From assembly GCF_024298765.1 (NCBI RefSeq), contig NZ_CP101218.1: DNA of 2,543 nucleotides; one strand, 5' to 3'. The position numbers were made by a program, and so were the translations under genes. The notes beneath the pieces were generated by a model. The model was not told the DNA's origin, searched no databases, and saw only the letters and a list, made by a program, of their open reading frames with translations. Shown in pieces: positions 134 to 1,986 of this stretch. The DNA is from Escherichia coli. GTDB taxonomy: Bacteria; Pseudomonadota; Gammaproteobacteria; Enterobacterales; Enterobacteriaceae. How positions within the stretch are numbered: position 1 is the stretch's first letter; each line of letters begins with the position of its first letter.

Positions 134-559
134 ATGACTAAAAATAAACGTAGTGGTTCAGAAGTACGGCAGAGAACTAAGGTTATCACCCTTAGAGTAA
201 ATAACAGAGTCGCAAGCGAAATCAGACGGCGAGCGAAGAACGAAGGACTGACAATTTCAGAATATATCAGGACGGCAAGTTTAAATAATGAAATAAAACA
301 GCGCGTACCTTCCAGGTATTTAGATGAATTAATCCGACTTGGTCGGATGCAGAAGAAATTATTTGATAAGGGAAAGCGGCCGAAGGATAAGGAGTACCTC
401 GAGGTGATGCATAAAATAATTTTACTTTGCGATGAAATGAAAATAGTAACGAAGCGAATTTCTGATGTATATAATGAAATGGATTTAATAAAGGATGAAA
501 TAAAAATAATAAAAAGGATACATAAAGATAAATATCCAGGTTCGGATTTATTCAAATAA
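134..559 (+). CDS. mobC: Ribbon-helix-helix DNA-binding protein, MobC/MbeC-like plasmid mobilization accessory protein (141 aa). The frame is open to the window start, so alternative starts at ATG 23, TTG 11 or off-window cannot be excluded.
   Basis: ORF track frame 11..559. ATG at 134 is preceded by GGAGAG with a 9-nt spacer. The N-terminal basic tail followed by RTKVITLRVNNRVASEIRRRAKNEGLTISEYIRTASLN fits the RHH beta-strand/helix/helix pattern (R-x-I-x-L-R-V ... G-L-T-I-S-E-Y-I-R) typical of MobC-type relaxosome accessory proteins; the C-terminal half is charged and helical. TAA stop at 557-559. Confidence 0.6.
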   Translation: MTKNKRSGSEVRQRTKVITLRVNNRVASEIRRRAKNEGLTISEYIRTASLNNEIKQRVPSRYLDELIRLGRMQKKLFDKGKRPKDKEYLEVMHKIILLCDEMKIVTKRISDVYNEMDLIKDEIKIIKRIHKDKYPGSDLFK

Positions 560-755: not shown

Positions 756-1307
756 TTAACTAGATTTATCCTCTTGTTTTTCAATTGTATTTTTTCTCTC
801 AATCACAGTTGTAAACGCGATTCTGTCACCATTAAAAACAAAGTTAGGGTTAATGAAATACCTTCCTTGTCGCATTGTTTTTGCAATTATTTTCGCTTTT
901 TCCAATTCATTAAGACCTCGCTTAAAGGTTGCAAGACTTAGTCGTAATGGTTGTTTACTCGCAGAAACTTGGCACTGAAGAAACGCTTCTAAAACTAAGG
1001 TATCCAAATCAACTTCGTCTTTTGAGAGTGCAGAGTTCTGAACGGACCAAACTAAAACACCGAAGGCTTTAATTCCCGCAGAAGATAGCTCAAAAGTTAA
1101 GCCAATATTTGCTGTAAAAAGTTTTACAAACTGTTCGCTATCAACACGTTTATATGTTGTTACGTGAGTACCTTGAACCTCACCTGTGTTCTGATTGACC
1201 AGGATGTTATCATCACGACCTAGACGCGAAAGCCTAACTTGCTTCCCCTTGACAGGTACAACCATTCCTTCTAAAAATGGGTTTTCTTTATAGCGACCGA
1301 AGCTCAT
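756..1307 (-). CDS. repL: Plasmid replication initiator, RepL family (winged-helix DNA-binding), 183 aa
   Basis: ORF track 756..1307 (-). ATG at 1305-1307 on the minus strand is preceded by AGGGGTG (SD-like) with about a 5-nt spacer. The protein carries motifs I recognise from RepL of staphylococcal pSN2-type plasmids and phage P1 RepL: NTGEV near the N-terminus, a central FVKLF...GL segment, and a C-terminal LNELEKAKIIAK...YFINPNFVFNGDRI (compare LKILEEGNIIKRK...LMLNPELLMRGDD). Family assignment is from memory, not a search. Confidence 0.8.
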   Translation of the reverse strand: MSFGRYKENPFLEGMVVPVKGKQVRLSRLGRDDNILVNQNTGEVQGTHVTTYKRVDSEQFVKLFTANIGLTFELSSAGIKAFGVLVWSVQNSALSKDEVDLDTLVLEAFLQCQVSASKQPLRLSLATFKRGLNELEKAKIIAKTMRQGRYFINPNFVFNGDRIAFTTVIERKNTIEKQEDKSS

Positions 1308-1476: not shown

Positions 1477-1510
1477 ACGGTAGTGCGTACGTGCTCAATT
1501 TAGCTACCGG
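1477..1510. repeat. Degenerate additional copies of the GCTAC/GTAGC iteron motif
   Basis: ACGGTAGT (1477-1484) and TTAGCTACCGG (1500-1510) match parts of the 15-bp iteron. Between them lies the palindromic core TGCGTACG. Confidence 0.3.
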
Positions 1511-1515
1511 TTCTT

Positions 1516-1573
1516 TTCCGCTTCCTCGTCGATTCGCTCACTACGTTCGGTCACCGACTTGCGGCGAGCGGTA
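1516..1573. other. Primosome-assembly-site-like segment (ssi/pas) resembling the region just downstream of the pMB1/ColE1 origin
   Basis: Window sequence TTCCGCTTCCTCG...CGCTCACT...GTTCGG...TGCGGCGAGCGGTA shares, in the same order and orientation, an 11-13-mer, an 8-mer and a 14-mer with the pBR322/pUC backbone (CTTCCGCTTCCTCGCTCACTGACTCGCTGCGCTCGGTCGTTCGGCTGCGGCGAGCGGTATCAG) as I recall it. Not verified by a search. Confidence 0.4.
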
Positions 1574-1932: not shown

Positions 1933-1986
1933 GTCTGGGGTACTCCCCAGACGGTTTCCGGTTGCGCTCAAGGCGCTGCCGGAACC
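1933..1986. repeat. Tandem GC-rich stem-loops
   Basis: GTCTGGGG-tact-CCCCAGAC (1933-1952) is a perfect 8-bp stem. It is followed immediately by GGTTTCCGG...GCGC-tcaag-GCGC...CCGGAACC (1953-1986), an 8-bp outer stem with one bulge plus a 4-bp inner stem. Confidence 0.7.

Follow-up and report, generated by a model that had tools for sequence, protein, structure and literature searches.

The DNA analysed here, referred to below as the window, is a stretch of 2,543 nt from Escherichia coli. Its GC island (1480-2200) matched plasmid pGF4-G (NZ_CP172224.1) of E. coli GF4 at 100% identity; this circular record of 2535 bp comes from chicken meat and has only repL and mobA annotated as genes. The whole window is essentially this 2.5-kb plasmid. 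The G+C content is 57-65% at about 1482-2200 as opposed to 25-45% in the remaining plasmid, and the following features were located:

134-559, plus strand: mobA, encoding a NikA-like ribbon-helix-helix protein (PF21983)
756-1307, minus strand: repL, encoding the replication/maintenance protein RepL (PF05732)
1350-1411: GAGCTAC-containing direct and inverted repeats, upstream of repL and between it and the module
1482 to about 2003: conserved non-coding, origin-adjacent module of RepL-type and pKL1-type small plasmids, with the hairpins as its distal end
1484-1573, minus strand: homologue of the ColE1 phiX174-type primosome assembly site (pas; n'-pas / ssiA region)
1695-1932: GC-rich, highly conserved core between the pas and the hairpins
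1933-1952: hairpin 1, a perfect 8-bp stem (GTCTGGGG/CCCCAGAC) with the 4-nt loop TACT
1953-1986: hairpin 2, a composite 12-14-bp hairpin (GGTT/AACC, CCGG(T)/(G)CCGG and GCGC/GCGC) interrupted by a bulged T and a small internal loop
2003-2122: extension of the module, present only in pGF4-G, 2.3-kb RepL plasmids and one IncX1 plasmid

The repeats at 1350-1411 are presumed to be RepL binding sites or an operator, by analogy with the iterons of the pHW126 family. The presumed RepL-binding motif occurs a third time at 1498-1509, abutting the pas (ATTTAGCTACCG, compared with ATTGAGCTACCG at 1397-1408), at a position where other plasmid families carry different bases. Upstream of the NikA-like mobA, an oriT of the RP4/R64 type was observed at about 20-62. 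It reads AATGTATTCG-CGGTATGA-CGAATACAC-ATCCTG/TCCC on the minus strand (the slash marks the nick), with the nick motif YATCCTG/Y placed 8 nt past an inverted repeat; since pGF4-G has no relaxase, this oriT would need an IncI1/IncP-type relaxase in trans. Between the convergent mobA and repL genes, a near-perfect 12-bp palindrome with T-rich runs flanking it on both strands (ATAAGGTCTTTT-AA-AAAAGACCTTAT, 563-588) is probably a bidirectional terminator.

With regard to the hairpin pair itself, hairpin 2 starts directly after hairpin 1 and reads GGTT-T-CCGGT-T-GCGC(T)-CAA-(G)GCGC-T-GCCGG-AACC on the plus strand, and the loops of the two hairpins measure 4 and 3-5 nt, respectively. A previous sequence-only reading of this DNA had described a perfect 8-bp hairpin adjoined by a composite one of about 12 bp, and had proposed folding of both strands as a check. 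Folded as RNA, the plus-strand 54-mer reached -37.5 kcal/mol (z -6.6, with none of 200 shuffles as stable) and the minus-strand 54-mer -33.6 kcal/mol (z -6.2), both far beyond the shuffled sequences. When both strands of the 721-nt GC island were scanned, 1933-1986 was its most stable 54-nt segment; the best segments of 60 dinucleotide-shuffled islands averaged -26.0 ± 2.7 kcal/mol with an extreme of -35.2, and none of the 60 reached the observed value. Sequence, coordinates, folding and shuffling thus agree that the earlier description was accurate and that the structure is no product of chance.

The same reading had stated that neither hairpin is followed by a U-run and that they are not simple terminators, and our results are in line with this: a T/U run after either hairpin was absent on both strands within the window, and a terminator scan of 1300-2543 was empty. 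No sigma-70-like promoters were found in 1300-2543, so none flank the hairpins, and the window gave no match to an Rfam family. A credible ORF was not found in the GC island; the coding potential of the island ORFs was unsupported and the region was treated as non-coding. An intrinsic terminator was rejected on the basis of the missing adjacent U-run, T-runs being present only in some relatives and 10-14 nt away. More generally, we consider it improbable that the hairpins serve as a terminator or insulator shielding the origin module from read-through. Such a role would suit the 1.5-kb pKL1-type plasmids, in which the hairpins lie about 100 bp past the rep stop codon, as well as the lineages with plus-strand T-runs; however, neither the window nor most variants have a U-run beside a stem on either strand, and in RepL plasmids no gene runs into the hairpins.

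Alignments of plasmid and metagenome sequences resolved the module into a left part of very high conservation (1514-1573), a stretch at about 1615-1693 that varies and is partly deleted in relatives, the core (1714-1932 in these alignments) and the hairpins. The core forms local hairpins of its own, including ATGCCC-GTCA-GGGCAT and CCCCT-AACC-AGGGG. Identity was 0.9-1.0 over 1714-1993, with values of 0.96-0.99 in the hairpin columns, and past 1993 it fell to 0.76 and then to 0.56. Furthermore, at least 8 unrelated downstream contexts start within about 10 nt of hairpin 2. This sharp loss of conservation, together with the variety of downstream contexts, indicates that the hairpins are the distal end of a discrete module.

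Several further elements were observed in and around the module. Just past the hairpins there is a perfect 12-bp inverted repeat (TGAGCGCGTTTC...GAAACGCGCTCA, 2010-2021 / 2075-2086), and a 17-nt motif, AAACGCGCTCAGA(A/C)GCT, occurs at 1698-1714 and again at 2076-2092, 378 nt apart, with an imperfect inverted copy at 1641-1659. The extension at 2003-2122 resembles a partial copy of 1641-1716. The variable stretch between pas and core contains three GATC sites in 31 nt (1594-1624, CGATCCCGTTTTTGATCTGCGACGATCG), which are specific to pGF4-G and the lineage of one related locus (L001). No DnaA boxes were found in the island, and a search for a Xer (cer/dif-type) site gave no match to the combined XerC/XerD arm pattern; the XerD arm occurred at chance level and outside the island. 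In many records of 1.5-kb plasmids, the pas is covered by 41-aa ORFs called 'replication protein', 'rep protein' or 'hypothetical protein', for instance L006 615-740 and L007 503-628 (corresponding to about 1500-1625 of the window), and these ORFs were probably called in error on a priming signal that does not code for protein.

A blastn search with the island matched 1914 PLSDB records, most of them over the first ~90 nt only, whereas the stretch around the hairpins (1880-2050) was found in 671 PLSDB records, mostly at 90-99% identity. Among 5426 complete E. coli genomes, 530 had a plasmid matching the island, and plasmid pG of the O104:H4 outbreak strain was one of the carriers. Carriers comprised RepL plasmids of 2.2-3.1 kb, 1.5-kb cryptic plasmids of the Col(MG828)/pKL1 type, whose RepA has a helix-turn-helix and is distantly RepL-like, and a 4237-bp family. 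The latter appears without rep in the PLSDB gene table; the notion of a rep-less family carrying an autonomous island was rejected, given that tblastn and blastn located a RepL gene of 70% identity across the record start of L002 (CP088783.1, 4237 bp), at 1-356 plus the record end.

The relationship between the module and rep was rigid. In all 76 copies with a locatable rep, which span RepL at 30-100% identity and pKL1-type RepA at 45-100%, rep was on the opposite strand, and the module lay upstream of it in constant orientation. The distance from the core motif to the rep start was about 497 nt for RepL and about 755 nt for pKL1-type RepA. In a Rep3-type plasmid (L082) the order was rep, five iterons, an AT-rich region, the pas and the first part of the core. 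The oriT, by contrast, varied: it is of the RP4/R64 type at about 20-62 on the minus strand in pGF4-G, of the same type but directly beside the module in some pKL1-type plasmids, and a ColE1 bom on the other strand in other pKL1-type plasmids. As the relation to oriT is not conserved while that to rep is rigid, the module is tied to vegetative replication and not to transfer. An oriT inside the island was likewise rejected, since oriT position and transferred strand vary relative to the island while the orientation to rep is constant.

The ColE1 bom/oriT (ColE1 1462-1526) recurs at 95% identity next to the pas in the 1.5-kb plasmids, for instance in a 1549-bp one of the pKL1 type (L007 226-290 and 480-576), and it is owing to this copy that they are called mobilizable by MOB-suite despite having no mob gene. 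Module fragments were also found in large plasmids (L011 2367-2652, IncX1, Salmonella; L081 3501-3679, IncF), and a 49-nt hairpin piece was located directly beside IS26 (L013 2501-2549). Four metagenome contigs (L014, L026, L041 and L057) contained 2-3 module copies with differing flanks, with three in 5.3 kb in L041; these represent either assembled concatemers, small-plasmid cointegrates or assembly chimeras.

At the start of the module, 1484-1573 aligned in BLAST with ColE1 1307-1396 (71% over 91 nt, E 4e-10, Plus/Minus), that is, with the CTTCCGCTTCCTCGCTCACTGACTCG...GCGGCGAGCGGTA region, which lies downstream of the ColE1/pBR322 origin and is established there as a phiX174-type primosome assembly site. 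The ColE1/pBR322 pas acts as a folded single strand. The minus strand of the window corresponds to the RNAII-sense (lagging-template) strand of ColE1 and, by analogy with ColE1, would be the active one. No ColE1 homology was found elsewhere in the window, and hairpins 1933-1986 had no similarity to ColE1 or to a pas. In the RepL plasmid pColZ, a homologous 583-bp region is labelled 'putative origin' and contains a 'phiX174 primosome assembly site' (PMC6668396).

The sequence-only reading had also raised the possibility of ColE1 RNAII stem-loops, and this part of it did not survive the comparison. That the hairpins belong to a ColE1-type RNAII primer / RNAI antisense control region is very unlikely, even though they are tandem, GC-rich and near a pas homologous to that of ColE1, and even though synteny would place a ColE1 origin on the hairpin side. 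ColE1 RNAI/RNAII has three stem-loops with kissing loops of 6-7 nt, convergent promoters, an RNAI terminator with a U-run and no plasmid-encoded initiator. In contrast, the window has two hairpins with small loops, neither promoters nor a U-run terminator in 1300-2543, and its own Rep with putative binding repeats; RepL or pKL1-type RepA was present wherever a rep match was possible (76/76). The Rfam RNAI model (RF00106) was unmatched in the window at E<=10, and none of 7 relatives matched it at the gathering threshold, whereas the ColE1 control scored 73.8 bits. There was no ColE1 homology beyond 1484-1573, and the would-be ori stretch (about 1615-1693) is deleted in 1.5-kb relatives. A ColE1-like origin, suggested by the CTTCCGCTTCCTCG...GCGGCGAGCGGTA motif, was rejected on the same grounds, namely BLAST homology at the pas only and a negative Rfam RNAI search.

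Loss of pairing among homologues had been set beforehand as the result that would speak against a conserved structure, and this test was run. Scanning metagenome contigs with a core motif situated outside the hairpins (67 loci) and adding the plasmid loci yielded 34 distinct hairpin-region sequences. Across these variants, the 22 proposed pairs were standard pairs in 96.3% of cases, as against 33-50% when the 3' partners were slid by 1-3 columns. Changes on both sides were found at 3 pairs, a number reached by 6 of 500 shuffles, although related sequences can outperform shuffles without structural constraint. These compensatory changes were T-A to C-G in hairpin 1 (one variant), C-G to T-A in hairpin 2, and an alternation of A-T and T-A at an internal position of hairpin 2. 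As these sequences share 90-95% identity, covariation gives only a small signal. In hairpin 1, the loop was the most variable element (TTCT, TACT, GTCT, CTCT, AGAA, AGAC) and the stem almost invariant. The pairing data argue modestly for structure; alone, they do not separate selection from shared ancestry.

A second kind of variation consisted of inversions. The interior of hairpin 2 was exactly inverted, from CCGGTTGCGCTCAAGGCGCTGCCGG to CCGGCAGCGCCTTGAGCGCAACCGG, in two distinct sequence contexts, L008 (~1550-1575) and L045, and hairpin 1 was inverted in L063 and L077, where the loop TTCT became AGAA or AGAC. Such flips are the expected product of template switching inside a real fold-back; occurring independently and each preserving the structure, they are the signature of sequences that truly fold back during replication. 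The flipped variants are natural structure-preserving mutants that could serve in experiments.

We also considered which strand the variation favours. Single-sided changes gave plus-strand wobbles in 4 variants and minus-strand wobbles in 2, and owing to G-T wobbles the plus-strand hairpins were the more stable ones in 15 of 17 variants. An RNAalifold consensus of the plus strand retained both hairpins, while in a consensus fold spanning the module, pairs over long distances showed almost no covariation, none of it convincing. The wobbles are indecisive as to strand choice, the counts (4:2 and 15/17) pointing to plus but coming from variants that share descent; furthermore, in the flipped forms, which persist, the asymmetry between the strands is reversed.

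These observations bear on the possibility that the hairpins are an RNA structure (a 3' end, a pause or a stabiliser) in a plus-strand transcript running through pas and core. Such a transcript would start from a rep-divergent or origin promoter and have an origin-activating or primer role, as has been proposed for pIGMS31 and pIGRK, in which Rep-regulated promoters with no known product point into the origin. The G-U-compatible pairs, the greater plus-strand stability and the retained consensus hairpins suit this explanation, as does a T6-T8 run located 10-14 nt past hairpin 2 in some lineages (L007, L009). Nevertheless, we regard it as rather unlikely in view of the empty promoter and terminator searches of 1300-2543, the lack of a T-run and of an Rfam match in the window, the near absence of covariation in the long-range pairs, and the flipped variants, which persist with the asymmetry reversed.

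The hairpins were not present in every relative. In the RepL plasmids L018 and L044, as well as in L010, rep, pas and core were kept and the module ended just before hairpin 1. In the IncX1 plasmid L011, the 5' arms of both hairpins were deleted, and the hairpins had decayed in large plasmids. As natural relatives without the hairpins keep rep, pas and core, the hairpins are not essential. This dispensability would fit an accessory element, as reported for the ssi of the pHW126 family.

It would also be compatible with quasi-palindromes that have no dedicated function, in other words a recombination-prone boundary or a double-stranded protein-binding site, kept mainly by recent ancestry. The break of family homology within about 10 nt past hairpin 2, and just before hairpin 1 in L018 and L044, points in that direction, and so do the decay in large plasmids, the low overall divergence and a strand preference that could not be proven. 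On the other hand, few positions of the module are as conserved as the stems, in contrast to the variable loop; pairing is restored by compensatory changes, and the two hairpins occur in hundreds of records, in several Rep families and in several hosts. We see this explanation as rather unlikely.

Our tentative preference is to see the hairpins as structural parts of a single-strand initiation (ssi/sso-like) module next to the origin, with the order pas, core and hairpins. The hairpins exist, their pairing is conserved, they share the module with a pas homologue, and the position and orientation of this module are locked to rep. In the mechanism that we envisage, Rep would open or nick the origin at the repeats (1350-1411), whereby the neighbouring module would become single-stranded. 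The pas (1484-1573) would then load the PriA primosome, and the GC-rich hairpins would extrude from SSB-coated DNA as a second, structure-dependent signal or as a boundary. This signal would lead to priming of complementary or lagging-strand synthesis, i.e., to a function of the ssi or single-strand-origin type. Of this, an action of the hairpins on single-stranded DNA and a share in priming are inferred, as is the choice of the active strand. Against the ssi reading, the plus-strand version is the more stable one in 15/17 variants; ColE1 homology predicts action of the pas on the minus strand. A single-strand initiation signal had been among the suggestions of the sequence-only reading; the context of the hairpins, an orientation-locked, rep-adjacent module with a pas homologue, fits this suggestion, while the hairpins themselves showed no homology to the G4 origin.

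Within the single-strand initiation reading, a more specific variant was considered, in which the minus-strand series of hairpin 2', hairpin 1', 8 nt and CTG would be a primase-only 'G-site' of the G4 type that fixes the leading-strand start. The start would be located about 520-580 bp from the Rep-binding repeats, as in plasmid R1, and extension of the primer pppAGCGAUGGGGG... would proceed in the direction leading away from rep. This analogy-based variant is a long shot; with no sequence homology and with a different spacing, the G4-type reading is a lead. If it were true, a portable cassette of pas and G-site would be common to three unrelated initiator families (RepL-like, pKL1 RepA and Rep3), and theta-style replication of the RepL-type E. 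coli plasmids would begin at a distance from their iterons.

As for what this means, cryptic plasmids of 1.5-4 kb are very common, and their replication has barely been studied. These particular hairpins are uncharacterised; as a kind, the pair is an ordinary origin-associated element and involves no new principle. A portable, orientation-locked cassette of pas, core and hairpins that travels with different initiators would help to annotate origins that are now mislabelled as 'rep protein' ORFs. In addition, second-strand priming and multimer avoidance in RepL-like plasmids could be studied on defined targets, namely the two stems, of which compensatory and flipped versions exist in nature.

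In comparison with known systems, the ColE1/pBR322 n'-pas (ssiA/rri) is homologous to 1484-1573 and, like it, origin-adjacent and non-coding, but hairpins 1933-1986 lie outside its homology. Phage G4 oric resembles the pair in having tandem GC-rich stem-loops on one strand with CTG 3' of the last stem. In G4, 3 nt separate the 8-bp stem-loop I from CTG, while on the minus strand here 8 nt (CCCCATCG) lie between the 8-bp hairpin and CTG. Apart from this spacing, G4 differs in having three hairpins instead of two and in showing no sequence homology; 1575-2200 gave no phage matches, and a G4 oric query found no plasmid. The minus-strand CTG triplet was kept in 33 of the 34 variants, with neighbouring bases kept equally well. 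Like the 'G-site' of plasmid R1, which is located downstream of oriR, the hairpins are a few hundred bp away from the presumed Rep-binding repeats.

Single-strand origins (sso) of rolling-circle plasmids are structured and non-coding as well, with a fixed orientation just upstream of origin and rep; they are non-essential but stabilising, and occur at recombination-prone module boundaries. Fixed orientation and position were found for the present module (76/76), as was extensive conserved secondary structure, while the ssoA motifs (RSB, CS-6) were not identified in it. By analogy with distant relatives, pGF4-G may replicate by a rolling-circle mechanism.

The distant relatives in question belong to the RepL-related pHW126 family, for which a layout of ssi, conserved region, iterons and rep, evidence of rolling-circle or mixed replication, and an ssi that is dispensable but whose loss leads to multimers and instability have been described (PMC2831885, PMC6854812, bioRxiv 10.1101/2022.12.05.519187). 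pHW126, pIGRK and pIGMS31 share with pGF4-G a winged-helix, RepL-related Rep and the arrangement of rep, repeats, a conserved region and a palindromic ssi, upstream of and divergent from rep. Their ssi, which affects multimerisation and copy number and is dispensable, is likened to the hairpins here by published layout and not by sequence; it is a single palindrome in an AT-rich plasmid. pGF4-G, in contrast, has a GC-rich block of about 520 bp with a ColE1-type pas at its near end and the two hairpins about 360 bp further out.
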